From: a virus
Virus record (IMG/VR): IMGVR_UViG_3300044984_000894
Reading direction: 5' to 3' (one strand)
DNA length: 35,813 nucleotides
The translations under genes were made by a program, and so were the position numbers. Under the pieces are notes generated by a model. It saw nothing but the letters and a program-made list of their open reading frames with translations, made no database searches and was not told where the DNA came from. Positions 4,934 through 35,813 of the stretch are shown piece after piece (within the stretch, counting starts at the first letter, position 1; the number at the start of each line of letters is the position of its first letter).

Positions 4934-5169
4934 TTGCTTATATGCCTGACATTAATTGTAGAGTTGCCAAAGTAGAACAGCAAATAGAAGCATTGCTTAA
5001 TGACATACATCATGACCGTGAGGAATCACGTAGACGATCTGATAGAATATTTTTAATATTAGATGAACTTCAAAAAACTACTCATAATAATAAAGGATTT
5101 TTTGGTGGCGTAGTATTTAGTGTTTCAGCTATTTTTGCTTTTATTGTATATTTAACGAGCAAGAATTAA
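4930..5169 (+). CDS. 79-aa protein with coiled-coil N-terminus and single C-terminal TM helix (possible holin or lysis regulator)
   Basis: FFGGVVFSVSAIFAFIVYLTS is hydrophobic. The stop overlaps the endolysin start (TAATG at 5167-5171). Confidence 0.55.
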   Translation: MIAYMPDINCRVAKVEQQIEALLNDIHHDREESRRRSDRIFLILDELQKTTHNNKGFFGGVVFSVSAIFAFIVYLTSKN

Positions 5170-5600
5170 TGAGTGCATTAGAAATATTAATAAAATTAAT
5201 AAAAGATTCAGAAGGTTGCAAATTAAAATCTTATAAATGCCCAGCAGGAATATGGACTATTGGTTATGGACAAACTAAAGGCGTTAAAGAAGGAATGACA
5301 TGGACACAGCAACAAGCTGATGAAGATATAATTAAAACCGCATTACAGGCTTTTAATGAAGCGATTAAGTCTTCACCAATACTATCAACTGCTAACATGG
5401 AGAAACAAGCTGCAATAGCGGATTTTGTTTATAATTTAGGCATAACGAATTACAATAAATCAACATTAAAACTAAGGGTTGATAAAGGTAACTGGGTTTC
5501 TGCATCAACAGAGATCAAGAAATGGAATAAGAGTAATGGAACTATTCTTAATGGTTTAGTTAAAAGAAGGCAATTAGAAGCTGACTTATTATTGATGTAA
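5169..5600 (+). CDS. Endolysin, GH24 (T4-lysozyme-like) muramidase
   Basis: IKDSEGCKLKSYKCPAGIWTIGYGQT gives the E-x8-(D/C)-x5-T catalytic pattern (E15, C24, T30). FVYNLG and LVKRRQLE are also family-typical. There is no N-terminal SAR/TM segment. Confidence 0.9.
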   Translation: MSALEILIKLIKDSEGCKLKSYKCPAGIWTIGYGQTKGVKEGMTWTQQQADEDIIKTALQAFNEAIKSSPILSTANMEKQAAIADFVYNLGITNYNKSTLKLRVDKGNWVSASTEIKKWNKSNGTILNGLVKRRQLEADLLLM

Positions 5601-5609
5601 GGAATTATA

Positions 5610-6026
5610 ATGGCTATATCGGTTTACACAAAATACACTGCTGGAGTTGAGTCACTGGTAGAAGGAACAAATGCAGGAACAGATGTTTGGAAGGTAGCAT
5701 TAGCAAATACTATCAACATTTCTGATACAACATTTGTAGCTGGAACAACAGATTTAGTTACTGCTGGAGGCTATACAGCTGGTGGTAATACTTGTGCTAC
5801 AACATCATCATCTCAGTCTGGTGGAATATTTAAACTTGTGCTTGCAAGTCCAGCTATTTGGACAGCAACAGGCGCAGGATTTACTTATCGCTATGCGATT
5901 CTCTATAATTCAACACTGAATATTCCAATAGGTTTTTGGGATTATGGCTCAAGCCAACTTATTTCAGCTTCTGAAACAGTGCAGACCGTACTTGATTCGG
6001 TCAATGGCGTGTTTCAAATAACTTAA
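5610..6026 (+). CDS. Hypothetical virion/tail-associated protein, 138 aa
   Basis: RBS aaggaattataATG, identical in form to that of the next gene. T/G/A/S-rich beta-type composition. Confidence 0.6.
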   Translation: MAISVYTKYTAGVESLVEGTNAGTDVWKVALANTINISDTTFVAGTTDLVTAGGYTAGGNTCATTSSSQSGGIFKLVLASPAIWTATGAGFTYRYAILYNSTLNIPIGFWDYGSSQLISASETVQTVLDSVNGVFQIT

Positions 6027-6035
6027 GGAATTATA

Positions 6036-7493
6036 ATGGCTCTTGCATTAAAAGATCGTGTTAAAGAAACAACTATTGTTGTAGGCACAGGAACAGCTAC
6101 TTTATTAGGCTCTAGCATTGGGTTTCAACCTTTTTCTGTTGTTGGCAATGGCAATACTACTTATTATTGTATTTCAGATCAGTTTGGCTCTAACTGGGAA
6201 GTTGGTATTGGCACTTATTCAACCTCTGGAAATACACTTGCTAGAACAACGGTATTGGCATCATCAAATGGTGGAGCATTAGTTGTATTTACTGCTGGGA
6301 TTAAAGATGTATTTGTCACTTATCCTGCTGAGAAAGGCGTTTGGCTTGATGCTTCTGGTAATGCTATAGGTTTAGGAACTCCTGCTGCATTTGTAGGCAC
6401 TAATATTACAGGTACTGCTTCTGGATTAACCGCTGGTAATGTTACTACTAACGCCAATCTTACAGGCGCAGTTACTTCTTCAGGCAATGCAACATCTTTA
6501 GGGTCTTTTACTTCTGCTCAACTAGCACTTGCAATAAGCGATGAAACAGGGACTGGTAAAGCCGTATTTGCAACAAATCCAACATTGACATCGCCAACTT
6601 ATGCAGGAACTCTTACAGGCTCTACTGACATACTAAACATAGGCTCAGGTCAAATCTATAAAGATGCTTCAGGCAACGTGGGGATTGGGACTGCTTCACC
6701 AACTCAAAAGTTACAAGTAGCAGGTAATATAGCTCTGCAAGGTAGTACATCAGGAACTGTAACATTACAAGCACCAGCGGTAGCAGGGAGTACGGTCTTA
6801 ACTTTGCCAGCGGTAACAGGAAACGTCTTAACAACTACAAGTGGTGTAGCACACACAGTCCAAGTATTCACATCAGGCTCAGGCACATACACTCTACCGA
6901 CTAACTGTAAAGCTATTAAGGTCACGATGGTTGGTGGTGGAGGTGGTGGCGGTGGTGGTGGTACTGGTAGTTGGGGTATCGGAGGGGCTGGAGGTAATAC
7001 TACTTTTGGAGCTAATACTGCAAATGGCGGAAACGCACCGGCTGCACCTTATGGTACTGGTGGTGGTGGTGGATCGTTTACTTTAGGTGTTGGCTCAGGG
7101 TATGGGATAGTTGGTGGGGCGGCTGGCGATGGTAGCATAACTACAACTGGAGGTACTGCTAGTAATGGCATAGGTTCAGCAGGAGGAGGCACACCATTCG
7201 GTAGTGGTGGGGCTGGTGGGGCTTATGTTACCAGTGGAAGAGCGGCCTCCGGCAATACAGGCGCTGGGGGTGGTGGTGGAGCTGCTGGTAATGCTACGGC
7301 TACTACTCTTTATGGTGGCAATGGTGGTGGAGGGGCTGGGTATTTAATGTCCTTAATAGCTTCTCCTTCTGCTACCTATTCGTATGCTATAGGGGCTGGA
7401 GGTACAGCCGGTGCAGCCGGTGCAGGGGGAAACGCGCAGGCTGGCGGTGCTGGTGGCTCAGGTGTAATTATAGTGGAGGAATATTATGTTTAA
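6036..7493 (+). CDS. Glycine-rich tail fibre / receptor-binding protein
   Basis: 485 aa. N-terminal fibre-like T/S/G/A repeats. The C-terminal 190 aa are dominated by GG-containing repeats starting at KVTMVGGGGGGGGGGTGSWGIGGAGGNTTFG and ending GGAGGSGVIIVEEY. Confidence 0.75.
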   Translation: MALALKDRVKETTIVVGTGTATLLGSSIGFQPFSVVGNGNTTYYCISDQFGSNWEVGIGTYSTSGNTLARTTVLASSNGGALVVFTAGIKDVFVTYPAEKGVWLDASGNAIGLGTPAAFVGTNITGTASGLTAGNVTTNANLTGAVTSSGNATSLGSFTSAQLALAISDETGTGKAVFATNPTLTSPTYAGTLTGSTDILNIGSGQIYKDASGNVGIGTASPTQKLQVAGNIALQGSTSGTVTLQAPAVAGSTVLTLPAVTGNVLTTTSGVAHTVQVFTSGSGTYTLPTNCKAIKVTMVGGGGGGGGGGTGSWGIGGAGGNTTFGANTANGGNAPAAPYGTGGGGGSFTLGVGSGYGIVGGAAGDGSITTTGGTASNGIGSAGGGTPFGSGGAGGAYVTSGRAASGNTGAGGGGGAAGNATATTLYGGNGGGGAGYLMSLIASPSATYSYAIGAGGTAGAAGAGGNAQAGGAGGSGVIIVEEYYV

Positions 7494-22956: not shown

Positions 22957-23379
22957 TTATTTATCAAATTGCAAATATTTTTTATCTTTCCAGAAAATAA
23001 ATGCTTCATATGCTCCAACATAACCAAGAGCTACACAAGCGAAAGCCCCTTGTTTCTTGGCTTCCAAGAGATATTCTTGCTGTCCATCTTGCCATTTTGA
23101 CCGTGTATGATCTTGACGTTTTAATTCACAGACGAACGCAACGCTTGCTGGAATTAAAATATCAGATGCTCCTTTTGTCATGCCTTCACTTTTTTGTTTA
23201 GCAACCTGGTGATAAGTACGCAGTCCTTCATTTCTTATGTGCGTTGCAATCTTTCCATAACTGTCTGGGTATTCTCTTCTAAGTTTTGCAAAGAATGTTA
23301 CTGCTTCAGCAGCTTCAGAAGGACATTCACCTCTAAACTCAATATCACCAAAAACTTTTATATCATTGTGGAACTTCAT
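22957..23379 (-). CDS. VRR-NUC domain nuclease
   Basis: GASDILIPASVAFVCELKRQ gives the PD-(D/E)xK signature, followed by QQEYLLEAKKQGAFACVA. The start is ATG 23379 (AGGA 6 nt upstream) or 23385. It overlaps the helicase stop. Confidence 0.75.
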   Translation of the reverse strand: MKFHNDIKVFGDIEFRGECPSEAAEAVTFFAKLRREYPDSYGKIATHIRNEGLRTYHQVAKQKSEGMTKGASDILIPASVAFVCELKRQDHTRSKWQDGQQEYLLEAKKQGAFACVALGYVGAYEAFIFWKDKKYLQFDK

Positions 23380-25147
23380 CGGCATTCCTGTTGTAGTCGT
23401 ATATCCTAAAAAAATCACCACTTTTTCTATAAGTGATGGTGGTTGGTGTTGTAAAGCCTCCATCAGTAAACGCCATAAAAGCATCGTAGTGCTTCTGCAT
23501 CTTCATGGTAAACCATACTGGAAACGATCTATACTCGGTTACAAAATCAACCCGTAGGCATTCATTTCCTGCCTTGCTTAGTGTGGGAGTTGCTCGCATT
23601 GCAACAACCTTATCAGTTTGTATCTGCGTGGGGTCTTTTTTCTTCATCTGGAAGTCAGAAATTAGCTTGCTGTTTGGGTCAATCAGTTCGTGCTTGCACT
23701 CGCAACAATACCTTGCTGCAATATCGTTTTCAGCTTCACAATGCACACAAGGTTTAAACGTCCATCTATAGCTGCATCTAACCAGTTTCTTTATGGTCTT
23801 GTTAAATACTTCCCCATAACATCTTCTGCCATGATGGGCTGGCATATCTCCATATTCTGTTTCTAGTCGTATTCCTTCAAGATCAATAAAATATCCATTA
23901 ATGTCAATCTCATGTTTTGCTTCATTAATTACTGGTGCAAACTGATTTATTGCTCTGCACTCTGGACATTGTGCTTCTATTGCTTCACCAGCTCCACAAT
24001 TACTTGATGCTTCAATTTCTGGATTAAATAAATCACCATCAGTACAATGACGACTAATATTTTCTGCATAATCAAGAATCAGACAGTCATCTTTGTTGTT
24101 ATCAATTCTAAGTCCTCTACCAATTATTTGTTGGAGTAAACTAACTGACTCGGTAGCTCTTAAAATAGCCACCAAATCAACGTGTGGGGCATCAAATCCT
24201 GTAGTCAACACGCTAACATTAACTAAATATTTAAGCCTTCTAGCTTTAAATAATCGCAGTATTTCAGCACGTTCTTGTTTGGGTGTTTCGCCAGTAACAA
24301 TTGCTGATAACGATGGCGGTAACGACCCCATTACCTCGCCAGCATGTTGCACTGTAGCTGCAAAAATCATTACACCTTGTCTATCTACTGCTTGCGATAC
24401 AATATCGCCCACAATTGAGCTGGTGAGCCTTCCTTGTCCATGAAATGCCCTATCAATGTCAGCAGCATCAAAGTTACCCATGCGATTGGTTTGCAACTCC
24501 AATGTTTCATAATGACCTGTATTGATTCCCCCAATAGTAGGAGCTGTTAAATAACCTTGTTTTATTAAATCTCTCGCATAAACAGTAAACACTCTTGCGC
24601 TAAAGTAAGGATCTTTTGCTTTATCGTCACCATAAGCATTGCCATGCTCGTCCATCCTATATATATAGCCATCACCAAGACGGTATGGCGTTGCTGACAA
24701 ACCTATGACCCTAAGATTAGGATTACAGGCAACCAAAGATTCAATGATGCTTTTAACGGTTGGTGTTATCCTATGTGCTTCATCCAGTACAACCGCACAA
24801 AATTTAGCTCCAAAACGATGAATCTTATTCTTGACGCTAACAGGTGTGCCAAAAACTACTGGATGTTTTAAACATGTTTCACCAACACTTGCACTAAACA
24901 AACTGCATTGATTACCAGTATCTCTATATTTCTCTGCATTTTGTTCTAACAGCTCTTTTGATGGGACAAGACACAATATATGTTTACCACCACTAACTTG
25001 GTGTAGTGTATTTGCTATTGCTGCAACAATTAAAGATTTGCCACTCCCTGTTGGCAGTTCTAATACGCATGGTGATGTACATTTCTTTATCCAGTCTATA
25101 GCAGCATCATGCGCTTGTGATTGGTATGGGCGCAGTTTCATAATCAT
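23363..25147 (-). CDS. SF2 DEAD/DEAH-box helicase with C-terminal zinc-ribbon region
   Basis: Motif I LELPTGSGKS, motif II VVLDEAH, motif III LSATP. C-terminal CPECRAIN and CVHCEAEN...CCECKHEL. Confidence 0.85.
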   Translation of the reverse strand: MIMKLRPYQSQAHDAAIDWIKKCTSPCVLELPTGSGKSLIVAAIANTLHQVSGGKHILCLVPSKELLEQNAEKYRDTGNQCSLFSASVGETCLKHPVVFGTPVSVKNKIHRFGAKFCAVVLDEAHRITPTVKSIIESLVACNPNLRVIGLSATPYRLGDGYIYRMDEHGNAYGDDKAKDPYFSARVFTVYARDLIKQGYLTAPTIGGINTGHYETLELQTNRMGNFDAADIDRAFHGQGRLTSSIVGDIVSQAVDRQGVMIFAATVQHAGEVMGSLPPSLSAIVTGETPKQERAEILRLFKARRLKYLVNVSVLTTGFDAPHVDLVAILRATESVSLLQQIIGRGLRIDNNKDDCLILDYAENISRHCTDGDLFNPEIEASSNCGAGEAIEAQCPECRAINQFAPVINEAKHEIDINGYFIDLEGIRLETEYGDMPAHHGRRCYGEVFNKTIKKLVRCSYRWTFKPCVHCEAENDIAARYCCECKHELIDPNSKLISDFQMKKKDPTQIQTDKVVAMRATPTLSKAGNECLRVDFVTEYRSFPVWFTMKMQKHYDAFMAFTDGGFTTPTTITYRKSGDFFRIYDYNRNADEVPQ

Positions 25148-25374
25148 TAATTACTCAGTTCAATACGTTTAAAAAAAGAATACCATTTTGATGGCTTTGC
25201 TGTATTGCCAAGCGTTAATAAACCATGATCATTCTTTAAAATAGCTATTGCTATAGCTTTGTATGATGGAGCTAAATTATTTTTCATTAACTCAGCAGGA
25301 ACTTCATCAGGGATATCTATTGGATAACCCTGTTCTTTCCATTTATTAATATAATCTTGTATTTTCCCAATCAT
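25147..25374 (-). CDS. Hypothetical 75-aa protein sharing an AIxILKNDH motif with the C-terminus of the PP-loop enzyme
   Basis: KAIAIAILKNDHGLLTLG compared with RFAITILKNDHTCKYMGF. TAATG junction with the helicase start. Confidence 0.55.
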   Translation of the reverse strand: MIGKIQDYINKWKEQGYPIDIPDEVPAELMKNNLAPSYKAIAIAILKNDHGLLTLGNTAKPSKWYSFFKRIELSN

Positions 25375-25729
25375 TTAATTTTATCCTTGCTGCATTGTTT
25401 GCTTCTATTTTTTGATAATCATCTAATAAAAAGAAACCACTTTTAAATGTGCTTGGTATTTTATTTGCCAAACACATTGATGACTGCCCAAGCCAAGCTA
25501 TTCTATTTATACTTGGATTAGATAAAAAATGTTCTGAAGAATATTTCCATGTTTTTATTACTTCATCCATTGAATAATTAAACAACTCAATATCTGATAA
25601 AAAAATTGCATATTCTTCTTTGCACTGTTCTTTTGTTTTTCCATCAGGTGGAATAGTGCTATAAAATCCTGCTTTATAGCACTCCCATAGCCACCAAGGA
25701 TGATAAATCCTAAGCCCATTCTTCTTCAT
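25346..25729 (-). CDS. Hypothetical 127-aa protein (MKKNGLRIYHPWWLWECYKAGFYS...)
   Basis: ATG at 25729 overlaps the ParB-like stop by 20 nt. No family recognised. Confidence 0.5.
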   Translation of the reverse strand: MKKNGLRIYHPWWLWECYKAGFYSTIPPDGKTKEQCKEEYAIFLSDIELFNYSMDEVIKTWKYSSEHFLSNPSINRIAWLGQSSMCLANKIPSTFKSGFFLLDDYQKIEANNAARIKLNDWENTRLY

Positions 25730-26237
25730 CTGCTTCCCAACTATCAGAAAAACTACGATTTTGAAATAAAGCAGCAACACCAGTTATTTGTTTTAATCTC
25801 AATAACTCATCAACACTCATTCCAATATGTTTGCATATCCAAGCATCTCCTTTTCCCATTTCAACAAGCTCAGAAACTATAGTACTCATTAATTCAATAT
25901 TATGAGAACCTCTAGCTCTGTTATGTCTGATAGTAGATGCCATTCTGTCGCCAAGTTCTTTTTTGATTACAACAATTGGCAGCATGTTATTTTCACGCTC
26001 TCTTATGCGCTCACTATTTTTCATTGTTAAATAGCGGTGAAACCCATCTACTACAATGTAAATGTCTTTTGTATCATCGTAATAAGTAACAATTGGCTGC
26101 GTATATCCATCTTCCCATATTGATGTTTCTAATAAAGCCATCTCAGGTGGAGCAACTGCATTAGGGTTGTAATCATTTGCAGTTACTTGGCTAAATGGAA
26201 CGCAAAGTACGTTATAAACTGGAGATTTAAATGTCAT
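25710..26237 (-). CDS. ParB/sulfiredoxin-fold protein (IbrB-like)
   Basis: VPFSQVTANDYNPNAV, IVVDGFHRY, TIRHNRARGSH. The ATG at 26237 is preceded by AAGGA. The track start 26264 is a TTG. Confidence 0.75.
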   Translation of the reverse strand: MTFKSPVYNVLCVPFSQVTANDYNPNAVAPPEMALLETSIWEDGYTQPIVTYYDDTKDIYIVVDGFHRYLTMKNSERIRERENNMLPIVVIKKELGDRMASTIRHNRARGSHNIELMSTIVSELVEMGKGDAWICKHIGMSVDELLRLKQITGVAALFQNRSFSDSWEADEEEWA

Positions 26238-26610
26238 ATGAATTATCCTTATTGTGGACCTCAAGTCCTGTTAATGGTGGGTTAAATACGCATAGCAGCT
26301 CTACTGTAGAAAAAGCTATAAATGAATGCGGATCATTGTTGTCAAGAACGTACATTGTGCCGGGCAATATTCTATGCTTTTCTCCTGTATTTTTATTTGT
26401 AATACATCCATGACCTTTTATGCAATAACAAGCTTCAAGATGATTTTTATAATGCCAATGTTGCTCTCCATTTGGAGGTATTATTGTATTTGTTACAGAA
26501 AATCCCATATTGTCTTTTTCAAGCAAAAACCTTCTGCTTAAAAACCCTCCTTTTGGGCATTTAACTTCTCTTTCTGTTCCTGCTAACTCATGTAATTTAA
26601 TTATTTTCAT
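26227..26610 (-). CDS. Ectoine-synthase (EctC)-type cupin
   Basis: Gap-free collinearity over 125 aa with EctC as I recall it. HWHYKNHLEACYCIKGHG aligns with HIHYKHHFEAVYCIEGEG, PGTMYVLDNNDPH with PGDIYILDQHDEH, and CVFNPPLTGLEVHNKDNSY with CVFTPGLTGNEVHREDGSY. The Glu/Tyr/His metal ligands are conserved. Confidence 0.8.
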   Translation of the reverse strand: MKIIKLHELAGTEREVKCPKGGFLSRRFLLEKDNMGFSVTNTIIPPNGEQHWHYKNHLEACYCIKGHGCITNKNTGEKHRILPGTMYVLDNNDPHSFIAFSTVELLCVFNPPLTGLEVHNKDNSYDI

Positions 26611-27908
26611 AATTTTTTATATTTTTCCATAATATTACGTTGTCTCAATGATTGTTCTTTTGTTGGAGCAAATCCCATGTATTTACAGGTATGGTCATTT
26701 TTTAAAATAGTAATTGCAAATCGTTTCCATGAAGCAATTTCACTATTATTATTTCTTATATCATCAGTATGGTCTGGGTATTTTTTAATTATCACTCTAA
26801 TTTTGTCTTTCCTTCCATGAGGAGTTAATCCGTTTTCTTTTATCTTTATACGGTTACTTTCTCTTAGTTGTTTTAAAGTACTGTCTGATACGGTTTGCCC
26901 AACTCTACCCCAGTATTTTATAGATTGAACAAACCGCATTTTAAAATTTATAGAAACTTCCTCCGGTAAAGTTGCCAATAAAAATTTAACAAATGATTTC
27001 CATGTATGTCCTTCTGGAAGCTTAAAAGTATTGTAATTAAGTTGTTTTCCATAAGTTGCTATAAAGTTAGCACCTTGCACTCTGGCACATAATTTAGCCC
27101 ATGTATGAGGATCAATAACTCGATACAAACCTAAACTAGATTTAGACTCAGACATAAATGGAGACGCAACCCTCATTCTATGAACTGGAATACCTGCTTT
27201 ATAAAAAATATCGTAAAGCTTGTTGTAATCCCAATCATATATATAATTAGCCGTCCAAACATCTTCTGTTCTCCAATCATAAATGGGGTAACAATTATAA
27301 GAATGTTCAGTATTCTTTTTTGTCCACATTTGACCGCCTAATGTTTCCTTGCGTTGATTCATAATTGCTCTAAACCTGTTTAAACTTTCAACAGTTCTAA
27401 TTCCAATTAAATTTGCGCAAGTTTTGCCTTGTGAATACCATTCTGAAAATCCATCCCAGAATTTATCGTATGGCATATCTTCTTCAAAAAATGGAAAATT
27501 ATGATTTTCAAAATTAACAATGTAATCTTGTTTTGGCATAGGGCGTATCCATCTTTCTTTATCTCTATTACCCCAGCATTGCCATTCAACTGCATACGAA
27601 CTTATTGTGCAAGGAAGCGTTATTGGCAAACAACACCAATAAATTTCAAGCAAATCTCTATTTGAATCAAGTATTTTGTGCATAAACTCTACAGACAATT
27701 CATAATTTGCTTCATTGTCTAAAATTTGAATGCCTATTTTTTTTGTTATTCCTTTTTCCCTCATATATTTCAAAACAAAATTAAGCATTACTCCAGAATC
27801 TTTGCCGCCTGAAAATGAAAGATATATTCTTTCAAAATTATTAAATATAAAATCTAATCTTTCTACGCCTGCATCCCAAACATTCTTATTTCTGTTATAA
27901 GTTCTCAT
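26607..27908 (-). CDS. PAPS-reductase-family PP-loop ATP pyrophosphatase with long C-terminal extension (IbrA/DUF3440-like)
   Basis: SFSGGKDSGV is the PP-loop. The ATG at 27908 forms ATGA with the exonuclease stop, and GGAGG lies 5 nt upstream. Confidence 0.85.
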   Translation of the reverse strand: MRTYNRNKNVWDAGVERLDFIFNNFERIYLSFSGGKDSGVMLNFVLKYMREKGITKKIGIQILDNEANYELSVEFMHKILDSNRDLLEIYWCCLPITLPCTISSYAVEWQCWGNRDKERWIRPMPKQDYIVNFENHNFPFFEEDMPYDKFWDGFSEWYSQGKTCANLIGIRTVESLNRFRAIMNQRKETLGGQMWTKKNTEHSYNCYPIYDWRTEDVWTANYIYDWDYNKLYDIFYKAGIPVHRMRVASPFMSESKSSLGLYRVIDPHTWAKLCARVQGANFIATYGKQLNYNTFKLPEGHTWKSFVKFLLATLPEEVSINFKMRFVQSIKYWGRVGQTVSDSTLKQLRESNRIKIKENGLTPHGRKDKIRVIIKKYPDHTDDIRNNNSEIASWKRFAITILKNDHTCKYMGFAPTKEQSLRQRNIMEKYKKL

Positions 27909-28768
27909 GTCAACCTCCAATAACTACTAGGAGGTGATTGATATTTAGTAAGGTCTGCATCAGGCAATAATTCTTTTATGGCTTTAGCGTAGGATATAGC
28001 ACCATCACGGTGTACTTGTGTTAGTTTGTGTCCAGCAATCTCACTATCCTTTCCACCAGCCAATGTAACTATCTCAGCTAATATATCTTTGCGTGTTGCT
28101 TCTAGCTTCTTAATTTCTTCTGTTGCTGCAAGATACAGTTCCAACATTGCTTCACATTGAAGTTGTTGGCGTTTATCTTCCAAATACTTTATACAGACTG
28201 GTGCTTCACGTTCCACAAGATACTTATTATAAAATGTTCTAAGTTCCGGTAAGTATTTATCAATAGCTAAAGGATTAAACCAAACTGTTTCTAGCATCTC
28301 TCCATGTGCAGACCATTGGTAGAAATGACACCATTCCCTACCAGTAACTAACAACTGTATTTGTATTTGCATCCAGTAATGCGTTTGGTAGTCTATGCTT
28401 TTAAACTCTGGTGGGTTTTTGTCACGCAAACCATATGGGCATTTAATTTCAATTAAACCGTCAGTATCGATCAAACCATCTGGTGATGCTCCAAGCCAAT
28501 CTTCATAAGTATGAAAACCAGTTTCTACTACTTTTTTATCAAACTTCAATTCGTAATCAGCTAAAGCATTGGGTTCGTTATACGTTCCATAGCTAGTCGC
28601 TGGATTACCAGTAAACTCACTTGGATAGCCATGATAATCACGAACCATGTTACGCATAACATCTTCACGTTTCATAAATGGCGACAATCCTAGAATTGCA
28701 CCAACATTACTACCAGTTATACGACCTTTGCGTTTTTCAAACCATTCTTCTGTACGTTGTTGTTCCAT
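27905..28768 (-). CDS. YqaJ-type (lambda-Exo-like) recombination exonuclease
   Basis: EEWFEKRKGRITGSNVGAILG and the later IEIKCP (PD-(D/E)xK) motif. Confidence 0.85.
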   Translation of the reverse strand: MEQQRTEEWFEKRKGRITGSNVGAILGLSPFMKREDVMRNMVRDYHGYPSEFTGNPATSYGTYNEPNALADYELKFDKKVVETGFHTYEDWLGASPDGLIDTDGLIEIKCPYGLRDKNPPEFKSIDYQTHYWMQIQIQLLVTGREWCHFYQWSAHGEMLETVWFNPLAIDKYLPELRTFYNKYLVEREAPVCIKYLEDKRQQLQCEAMLELYLAATEEIKKLEATRKDILAEIVTLAGGKDSEIAGHKLTQVHRDGAISYAKAIKELLPDADLTKYQSPPSSYWRLT

Positions 28769-35251: not shown

Positions 35252-35813
35252 ATGGCAAAAATGACTGATTCAGAAATATTGGCAATTATCCAAAATGAAA
35301 TGGCTAATGCCGATATTACGACAACTTCATCTTCTGCATTACAAGAACCTTTAAGATATTATCTTGGGCTTCCATTAGGTAATGAACAGGAAGGGCGTAG
35401 CTCATTGGTATCAACAGATGTTGCTGATGCTATTGAGTGGATAATGCCTCAGATTATGAAATCATTTACTCAGAATAATGAGGTGGTGGTTTTTGATCCT
35501 GTTAATGAAGGAGATGAATTACAAGCGCAGATTGAATCAGAATATGTATATGACGTATTGATGAAGCAAAATGATGGGTTTACTTTAATCCATCAATTTG
35601 TGAAAGATGCACTTATGCAACGCAATGGAATGTTAAAAGTTTATTATGAAGATGATGAAAAGATAACCACCTATAATTACTCAGGATTAACAGAAGATCA
35701 GTTAGCTGTTGCCTTGATGGATGAAGATACTGAGATATTAGAATTAACTGAAGATGAAAGTCAATCAGAAAATCCATTAGAGCAAGAACCTGTTACTTAT
35801 AGTGCAAAGATTA
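35252..35813 (+). CDS. Portal protein, N-terminal part (runs off the window end and continues at position 128 via the terminal overlap)
   Basis: MAKMTDSEILAIIQNEMANADI...RYYLGLPLGNEQEGRSSLVSTDVADAIEWIMPQIMKSF. In phase with 1..1722. Confidence 0.85.
   Translation, partial: MAKMTDSEILAIIQNEMANADITTTSSSALQEPLRYYLGLPLGNEQEGRSSLVSTDVADAIEWIMPQIMKSFTQNNEVVVFDPVNEGDELQAQIESEYVYDVLMKQNDGFTLIHQFVKDALMQRNGMLKVYYEDDEKITTYNYSGLTEDQLAVALMDEDTEILELTEDESQSENPLEQEPVTYSAKI
35687..35813. repeat. Terminal overlap, copy 2 (identical to 1..127)
   Basis: Direct comparison of both ends. Confidence 0.95.

Follow-up and report, generated by a model that had tools for sequence, protein, structure and literature searches.

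An EctC-type ectoine synthase homologue in a recurrent phage gene cassette with an IbrA-like ATPase and a ParB-like protein

Ectoine synthase (EctC) is an iron-dependent enzyme with a cupin fold. It belongs to ectABC gene clusters and closes N-gamma-acetyl-2,4-diaminobutyrate (N-gamma-acetyl-DAB, or N-gamma-ADABA) to ectoine. In EctC of P. lautus (PlEctC), the iron is held by Glu57, Tyr84 and His92, and the substrate is contacted by Trp21, Arg25, Asn38, Thr40, Tyr52 and Glu57, with Ser23 and Phe106 as further contacts to ectoine. The W21A variant keeps 9.7% activity, so Trp21 is needed (Czech et al. 2019, PMC6344544). Solitary EctC-type proteins have also been described, and their substrates are an acknowledged, unresolved question (PMC5924519). 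Finally, two recent virome papers take viral ectoine synthase as an auxiliary metabolic gene (AMG) for osmoprotection (PMC12647753, PMC13079714), and one of the two states that such genes were previously found only in prokaryotic genomes. The subject here is an ectC gene in a phage genome, IMG/VR virus record IMGVR_UViG_3300044984_000894, whose entire 35,813 nucleotides are called the window.

Two other described systems are close to the neighbours of this gene. Classical IbrA/IbrB pairs consist of a protein with PAPS_reduct and DUF3440 domains and a small ParB-like protein, and lie in phage early regions. The literature found on IbrAB gives a single phenotype, "co-activator of prophage gene expression" (eib), that is, transcriptional activation. 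In the Dnd system, roles have been described for a ParB-superfamily protein with a DGxHR-type motif (DndB) and for a PAPS-reductase-family PP-loop ATPase with conserved cysteines (DndC) (PMC10853773); IbrB and IbrA resemble these two.

In the window, ectC is combined with the same two-gene core as in classical IbrA/IbrB pairs, within a cassette of five genes. The proposed reading is that EctC is a cyclic-amidine-forming cyclase acting on a small amino-acid-like substrate, within a DNA-tethered IbrA/IbrB pathway. The probability of this reading is put at about 50%. The enzyme family is known; the variant described here, which belongs to a recurrent and uncharacterised phage cassette, is new. 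Its genes are:

26607-27920, minus strand: IbrA-like PP-loop ATPase, 437 aa; PAPS_reduct (PF01507, 1.3e-09) and DUF3440 (PF11922, 5.3e-60); phrog_2302
26227-26610, minus strand: ectC, EctC-type cupin of a phage-specific clade, 127 aa, ATG start
25710-26237, minus strand: IbrB-like protein of the ParB/sulfiredoxin (Srx) family, 175 aa from the ATG at 26237 (alternative TTG start at 26264)
25346-25729, minus strand: p144, a conserved cassette protein, 127 aa from the ATG at 25729, probably the real start (144 aa from a GTG at 25780)
25147-25374, minus strand: p75, 75 aa; matches DUF3440 positions 138-172 (E 0.0012); phrog_15645

Each gene overlaps the next. As read from the sequence, the ibrA stop and the ectC start share an ATGA, and the ATG of the ParB-like gene lies inside the 3' end of ectC, with an overlap of 11 nt. 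The cassette is translationally coupled. An earlier first-pass annotation had described this ectC as solitary and as coupled to DNA-acting enzymes. The tight coupling to DNA-related genes stands; the neighbours, however, form one defined pair of a PP-loop ATPase with a ParB/Srx protein, and the gene is a fixed member of the cassette rather than a solitary one.

The evidence for a fixed association comes from other phages. Among GenBank phages, tblastn finds PAPS reductase, EctC and ParB arranged alike in Pseudoalteromonas phage XCL1123 and the mycobacteriophages Gaia and Nebkiss, and no DNA nearly identical to the window was found there. IMG/VR holds 212 contigs with phage-type EctC relatives. 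A motif scan of one genome per species, covering 185,579 species, gave seven matches, all of them contigs of metagenome-assembled genomes (MAGs) with the full cassette. The clade is thus essentially viral. IbrA, EctC, ParB, p144 and p75 occur together in about 100 loci, essentially every locus fetched, and about 115 distinct phage cassettes were collected; phages with such a cassette number in the hundreds. Identities to the window proteins are 64-76% for IbrA, 73-85% for ParB in most loci and 45-65% for EctC.

Linkage can also be measured from the side of IbrA. When loci were retrieved by IbrA alone (at least 64% identity), EctC was present in 79 of 80. IbrA/IbrB pairs without EctC are found in phages of Streptococcus, Lactobacillus, Listeria, Fusobacterium and Microcystis, where IbrA is about 36-42% identical. 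Because these pairs lie at such a distance, EctC marks one tight IbrA subfamily. Unlike classical IbrA, the members of this subfamily (64-76% identical) have four further invariant cysteines, C96, C104, C115 and C278, and their cassettes add EctC, p144 and p75. C97, C412 and the PP-loop are universal across the IbrA proteins compared, including those without EctC.

The order of the genes can vary without loss of the set. Permuted orders are EctC-ParB-p144-p75-IbrA (contigs L034 and L036), ParB-p144-p75-IbrA-EctC (L058, L061 and L072) and IbrA-EctC-p144-p75-ParB (L088), and the permuted cassettes retain the same genes. EctC and IbrA have also diverged together: over the 115 distinct cassettes their pairwise identities co-vary (Mantel r = 0.63; none of 500 permutations was as high).

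In many cassettes the association is a covalent one. EctC and ParB form a single open reading frame (ORF) in 36 of 80 distinct loci, are separate and adjacent in 38, and are non-adjacent in 6. The fusion in phage Gaia, gp104, was already noticed by GenBank annotators, who call it an "ectoine synthase/ParB multidomain protein". A protein search with Gaia gp104 gave 120 listed clusters of about 300 aa, and in at least 115 of these PF06339 and PF02195 are found together.

An AlphaFold model of Gaia gp104, whose EctC is 48% identical to that of the window, has a confidence score (pLDDT) above 90 over the EctC domain. This domain superposes on 5bxx_B with a TM score of 0.95 and a root-mean-square deviation of 1.2 Å (E 6e-13). 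The linker is disordered and the geometry between the domains is not confident (pTM 0.46). The 50 matches listed in a fold search with the fusion model are cupins, with none for the ParB half.

The identity of the enzyme is well determined. The window protein scores 151.5 bits (E 1.8e-44, cut-off 27) against Pfam Ectoine_synth (PF06339), over its residues 1-126 and positions 1-124 of the 127 in the profile. Against the NCBIfam ectoine synthase NF009806 it scores 154.2 bits, above the curated cut-off of 128. The closest solved structures are EctC of P. lautus (5onm, E 1.9e-27) and of S. alaskensis (5bxx, E 1.1e-25). Since the Cupin_2 score of just 31 bits lies far below the two ectoine synthase scores, the similarity is specific to EctC and is due neither to a generic cupin nor to chance. 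The homologue called by the first-pass annotation, which left the strand unstated, is thereby borne out, and the merely generic cupin that it had considered as the alternative is ruled out. Its motifs and the Glu, Tyr and His ligands are preserved too; its gap-free alignment is not, since a real alignment to PlEctC has two small gaps. That alignment gives the following correspondence:

PlEctC Glu57, iron ligand and substrate contact: window Glu59
PlEctC Tyr84, iron ligand: window Tyr87
PlEctC His92, iron ligand: window His95
PlEctC Trp21, substrate contact: window Phe23, changed
PlEctC Arg25, substrate contact: window Arg27
PlEctC Asn38, substrate contact: window Thr40, changed
PlEctC Thr40, substrate contact: window Thr42
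PlEctC Tyr52, substrate contact: window Tyr54
PlEctC Ser23, product contact: window Ser25
PlEctC Phe106, product contact: window Phe109

Conservation of the N-gamma-ADABA pocket, which the first-pass annotation had singled out as telling, is therefore partial: four of the six contacts are kept (R27, T42, Y54, E59) and two are changed. The pattern holds across the phage proteins. S25, R27, T42, Y54, H57, E59 and Y87 are identical in all 80 distinct phage EctCs, and H95 and F109 in 79 of them. The position of PlEctC Trp21 is Phe in 74 of the 80 and Trp in every ectABC-linked sequence sampled. Among near-identical contigs, 17 synonymous codon changes stand against 2-3 nonsynonymous ones, and ectC is under purifying selection.

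Two further positions were considered and set aside. His53 (PlEctC Trp51) is not a clade-specific fourth metal ligand, as His also occurs there in ectABC-linked EctCs of Vibrio, Salinivibrio and Sphingobium. Thr40 is not a sign of lost carboxylate binding: because five ectABC-linked comparators have His there, the Asn38 position does not discriminate.

In a neighbour-joining tree, the 80 phage EctCs were compared with six ect-linked sequences (PlEctC, four preceded by ectA-ectB and one preceded by ectB) and four plasmid orphans, a small sampling of cellular proteins. The phage sequences are monophyletic and lie apart from both of the other groups, the division between bona fide and orphan EctCs against which the first-pass annotation wished to see them placed. 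Markers of the clade are Phe23 (Trp in all ect-linked sequences), Trp52 (elsewhere Ile, Met, Phe or Leu) and Cys61 (Val in ect-linked sequences; Val59 in PlEctC). The EctC family overall comprises 583 clusters at 50% identity (E <=0.001).

Bona fide EctC (5onm, 5bxx) and phage EctC thus share the Pfam and NCBIfam family, the cupin fold, the Glu/Tyr/His iron site, the Ser, Arg, Thr, Tyr and Phe contacts to substrate or product, and a conserved C-terminal lid. The phage proteins differ in being only about 37-43% identical and in forming a separate clade with Phe for Trp21, Trp at 52 and Cys for Val59. They also differ in lacking ectA and ectB, in lying within or being fused to the IbrA/ParB cassette, and in their viral distribution.

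Orphan bacterial EctCs (P. syringae; groups 1-3 of Czech et al. 2018, PMC5924519) are similar to the phage gene in other ways. They have no ectA or ectB neighbours, and they too are basal to the clades linked to ect clusters. The closest plasmid matches to phage EctC are orphans, from Marinobacter (49%) and Aliiroseovarius (51%). In R. etli and S. meliloti the orphan ectC adjoins ATP-grasp genes, and the phage ectC likewise lies beside a gene for an ATP-dependent enzyme. Unlike phage EctC, the bacterial orphans sampled have no IbrA/ParB neighbours, carry Gly or Trp at position 23 and fall outside the phage clade.

Several observations concern other members of the family. On an R. etli plasmid (L107, 4001-5678) and an S. 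meliloti plasmid (L108, 2442-6094, with glnA), the ATP-grasp genes beside the orphan ectC are of the "biotin carboxylase family". On an Aliiroseovarius plasmid (L103, 4001-8351), an orphan ectC lies beside ketosynthase, acyl-CoA dehydrogenase and AMP-binding genes. As a general pattern, an ATP-dependent enzyme that forms amides may precede orphan EctCs.

MT835761 ("Bacteriophage sp.", from human faeces) was rejected as a further phage EctC. It has no IbrA or ParB, its ectC has ectB upstream (6rl5, E 6e-120), and its signature is the bona fide one. This deposit, labelled as phage, is probably a fragment of bacterial DNA or an acquisition of another kind; its bona fide-type ectB-ectC (L003, 2-1636) served as an ect-linked control. 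Fusions of EctC to a formyltransferase were also rejected as members of the clade, as their bona fide-type pocket signature rules them out. Two representative proteins of about 380 aa, P0294 and P0396, have this EctC-Formyl_trans_N architecture, and in some organisms the ectoine reaction may accordingly have a formyl (2-desmethyl) variant. The representative proteins also include the fusions EctC-PhyH, Amdase-EctC, EctC-Glyoxalase_6 and tandem EctC domains.

The absence of ectA and ectB from the genome can be assessed over its whole length. Nucleotides 1-127 of the window are identical to 35687-35813, and a portal ORF spans the junction. Because of this terminal repeat and the ORF across it, the assembly is a circularly closed one of 35,686 bp. 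The structural module is SU10-like, that of a podovirus. A Pfam scan of 35 other window ORFs of at least 90 aa gave phage-type families only: SU10 portal, capsid and adaptor, terminase, lysozyme, AAA_24, AAA_25, Toprim, DUF669 and PASTA. Among these 35 ORFs there is no class III aminotransferase (ectB) or acetyltransferase (ectA) family. The sole Aminotran_3 match of the scan was an ORF added as a control from another record, an EctB (6rl5, E 6e-120). The earlier statements that ectA and ectB are missing from a complete genome, and that classical ectoine synthesis is unlikely, are both supported.

These results bear directly on the published view of viral ectC. If the gene were an osmoprotection AMG, phage EctC would turn host N-gamma-acetyl-DAB into free ectoine, or hydroxyectoine where EctD is present. 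The conserved iron ligands, the retention of most substrate contacts and the score above the NCBIfam ectoine synthase cut-off are all in its favour, and so are EctD-like genes in two cassettes. It is also the interpretation in print for viral ectC (PMC12647753, PMC13079714), and a solitary P. syringae EctC complemented an ectC mutant (PMC5924519). On the other hand, the phage clade is separate from all ectABC-linked sequences sampled and differs at Trp21, a residue needed for activity, and the host would have to provide EctA and EctB. Cassette-bearing MAG bins are classified as Flavobacterium, Sediminibacterium, Saprospiraceae and Gallionella, none of which is known to produce ectoine. Moreover, osmoprotection leaves unexplained the linkage to one IbrA subfamily in 79 of 80 loci, the recurrent fusion to a ParB-like protein, the co-divergence with IbrA and the position in a replication/recombination operon. 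The AMG reading of viral ectC is therefore poorly supported, the phage gene is not likely to serve just as a helper against salt stress, and this explanation of the window gene is judged quite improbable. Because the closest sequences are locked in an IbrA/ParB cassette and are often fused to ParB, many AMG calls for viral ectC may be wrong.

The partners of EctC provide the next line of evidence. The IbrA-like protein has the canonical PP-loop SFSGGKDS and is 40.6% identical to "IbrA" of Streptococcus thermophilus phage CHPC877, with a conserved pattern of cysteines. A PDB search found no close solved relative, and a profile search gave weak PP-loop matches to CysD, LarE and PAPS reductase. 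NCBIfam and PADLOC give weak matches to DndC and BrxP. Against the DndC equivalog TIGR03183 the score is 20.7 bits, with a cut-off of 290.4, and PADLOC DndC gives 27.5 bits. Beyond this weak similarity, PADLOC assigned none of the window proteins to a defence system.

The IbrB-like protein is 60.5% identical to "IbrB" of CHPC877. Its motifs include NPN and DGFHR, its C-terminal half is helical, and it matches phrog_2159, "ParB-like partition protein", at 2.7e-75. Its Pfam ParB_N match, 16.5 bits, is under threshold. A PDB sequence search with it gave nothing useful. Through phrog_498, ParB_N domains are seen also to head phage DNA methyltransferases.

A second explanation places the chemistry on DNA itself. 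IbrA would adenylate a base, or a group appended to it, and EctC held by ParB would close the ring on the DNA-bound group. The outcome would be a new hypermodified base that shields phage DNA from restriction. The EctC-ParB fusions and the methyltransferases just mentioned are consistent with this, as are the parallel of IbrA/IbrB with DndC/DndB (PMC10853773), the methyltransferase-like insert in one fusion, and the adjoining YqaJ exonuclease, SF2 helicase and recombination genes. Against it, the EctC pocket keeps without exception the residues that accommodate a free alpha-amino group and carboxylate, and the lid region is unaltered; a small free amino acid fits this better than a flipped nucleotide. 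The DndC score falls far short of its cut-off. No transferase that could attach an amino acid to DNA was recognised, and the searchable literature reports no modified base for Gaia or XCL1123. Comparison with Dnd and BREX type 4 (BrxP) shows further differences: EctC and EctD have no counterpart in Dnd, the cassette is encoded by phages and is not a host defence, and the Pfam scan of the other window ORFs contains no DndA, DndD or DndE family. Base hypermodification of this kind is considered unlikely.

A third explanation takes the EctC cupin as a sensor. Without catalysis, it would bind a small molecule, such as an ectoine-like compound or an amino-acid amide, and gate a ParB-like regulator acting with IbrA, in the manner of cupin-HTH regulators. 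The fusions do join a cupin to a DNA-binding type of protein, a cupin-bearing HTH_3 regulator (1y9q) is among the structural neighbours of the Gaia gp104 model, and transcriptional activation is the one IbrAB phenotype in the literature found. The metal ligands and catalytic core are nevertheless invariant in sequences only about 54% identical overall, and EctD-like and methyltransferase-like tailoring enzymes indicate a pathway. EctC is also free-standing in half of the cassettes. A pure sensor ranks as quite improbable.

The tailoring enzymes are found in variant cassettes. Two unrelated contigs, L039 (4030-5004) and L032 (4066-4998), have an EctD-like dioxygenase between IbrA and EctC. These proteins score 284.5 (L039) and 172.8 (L032) bits against the ectoine hydroxylase TIGR02408, whose equivalog cut-off is 336.5, and the next-best family gives about 31 bits. 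With thpD from the ectABCD clusters of Sphingobium and Streptomyces, the EctD-like dioxygenase shares 42% identity and the signature (F/W)xWHSDFETWHxEDG(M/L)P. A strictly conserved 17-aa signature of EctD has been described (PMC3979721). Contig L032 also encodes a triple fusion of 499 aa (5001-6500) of EctC, a 197-aa segment resembling class I methyltransferases, and ParB. The middle segment matches no family, and the methyltransferase reading comes from its motifs. Such occasional additions, the EctD-like and the methyltransferase-like, resemble steps that would tailor an ectoine-like product.

For the cyclase reading proposed above, the steps would be as follows. EctC would catalyze an iron-dependent intramolecular condensation of an amide and an amine to a cyclic amidine, or the reverse hydrolysis. 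Cyclocondensation is probably retained, because the metal site and the residues holding the alpha-amino and carboxylate groups are invariant. The substrate would be a small molecule resembling an N-acyl-2,4-diaminobutyrate or glutamine. Its acyl side is probably not acetyl, given the change of Trp21 to Phe and the new Trp52 and Cys61. Such flexibility has precedents: in the summary of Witt 2011 given in PMC5924519, EctC converts glutamine to ADPC and hydrolyses homoectoine and DHMICA. With this promiscuity on record, a substrate that needs neither EctA nor EctB is chemically reasonable.

Enzymes of the PP-loop superfamily use adenylation to activate carbonyl or carboxylate oxygens. IbrA could thus use ATP either to make the amide substrate of EctC or to consume its product, for instance by ligating it to a target. 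The reaction would take place on a complex held at phage DNA by the ParB-like protein, a location suggested by the ParB fusions and by the position in a replication/recombination operon. In some cassettes the EctD-like hydroxylase and the methyltransferase-like domain would extend the pathway. The end product would be an ectoine-like moiety for modification of DNA or nucleotides, or for control of the phage replication region, and probably not an osmolyte made in bulk.

The first-pass annotation had leaned towards a DNA-linked function. From the ParB fusions, a substrate linked to DNA is plausible. The conserved amino-acid-binding residues Ser25, Arg27 and Thr42, together with the EctD-like hydroxylases of two cassettes, point to a small ectoine-like amino acid as the substrate rather than to a nucleotide or DNA.

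A number of observations weigh against the cyclase reading. IbrA/IbrB pairs occur without EctC in phages of Streptococcus, Lactobacillus, Fusobacterium and Microcystis. EctC is dispensable in at least one lineage, because in L127 (3868-4617) a 1-Cys peroxiredoxin stands in its place, between IbrA and the ParB/sulfiredoxin-family protein. EctD-like genes are present in just 2 of about 150 contigs. The ParB domain is below the Pfam threshold and its DNA binding is a prediction, and the low pTM of the fusion model provides no geometry that would support channelling. The nearly unchanged barrel and lid of EctC argue against a bulky DNA-bound substrate and would allow the plain N-gamma-acetyl-DAB reaction. 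Finally, literature searches on IbrA/IbrB and DUF3440 gave the co-activator phenotype and no biochemical mechanism.

A bolder reading is an assembly line tethered to DNA. It would make an ectoine-like cyclic-amidine amino acid and couple this to phage DNA or to a nucleotide, and some variants would add hydroxylation and methylation. This reading is speculative and rather unlikely. If true, it would add a new class to the hypermodifications of phage DNA, or constitute an anti-restriction chemistry, in which a PP-loop ATPase and a ParB clamp drive enzymology of the EctC/EctD type.

The presence of EctC gives the widespread IbrA/IbrB pair a chemical handle, the joining of an amide and an amine to a cyclic amidine, and the cassette gives orphan EctC-type proteins a natural context. 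No paper describing the association was found in literature searches, which covered ectoine synthase together with ParB or PAPS reductase, PP-loop proteins together with ParB, DUF3440, and IbrA/IbrB. The cassette can be tested in cultured phages, namely Gaia, Nebkiss and XCL1123.

Beyond the cassette, two neighbouring genes in the window belong to DNA metabolism:

27905-28768, minus strand: YqaJ-type exonuclease, directly upstream of the cassette
23363-25147, minus strand: SF2 helicase (ResIII/DEAD), 594 aa, directly downstream of the cassette

Because the exonuclease adjoins it, the cassette lies within a recombination/replication module. An SF2 helicase precedes or follows the cassette in many loci, not in all. 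That of the window has a C-terminal third rich in cysteines, with several CxxC pairs, and among PADLOC families it comes closest to PbeA and type IV restriction helicases.

The protein p75 is a free-standing paralogue of the last 70 or so residues of IbrA/DUF3440 (window 26607-26800), with the shared motif ILKNDH. It also matches the IbrA C-terminus in L037. In phages without EctC, a p75 query matches the IbrA C-terminus only.

The sequence of p144 has no match in Pfam, PHROG or PDB sequences. Its model is all-helical (pLDDT 94.8); a fold search with it gave none in the PDB and one unnamed match in BFVD. Over 41 homologues, H10, W15, E16, C17, S64, N75, W79, G81 and Q82 are invariant and C65, R76 and C86 nearly so. 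H10 and C17, with C65 and C86, could form a metal site. A 126-aa ORF after IbrB in Fusobacterium phage phiFN37 was considered as a relative, and hhalign gave no relation. Microcystis phage Mwe-JY13 has a p144 homologue, annotated "ParB/sulfiredoxin", and no EctC.

Sulfiredoxin acts naturally on peroxiredoxin, and the place of the latter beside a ParB/sulfiredoxin-family protein in L127 may or may not be a coincidence.

Small GIY-YIG-like ORFs with the motif YxITYPNGKIYIG are located at varied junctions of the cassette (L002 6890-7264, which is Gaia gp105; L049 2532-2852; L054 4666-4983; L148 1391-1666), and one GIY-YIG ORF of 250 aa interrupts it (L042 4510-5262). These are probably insertions of the homing-endonuclease type.

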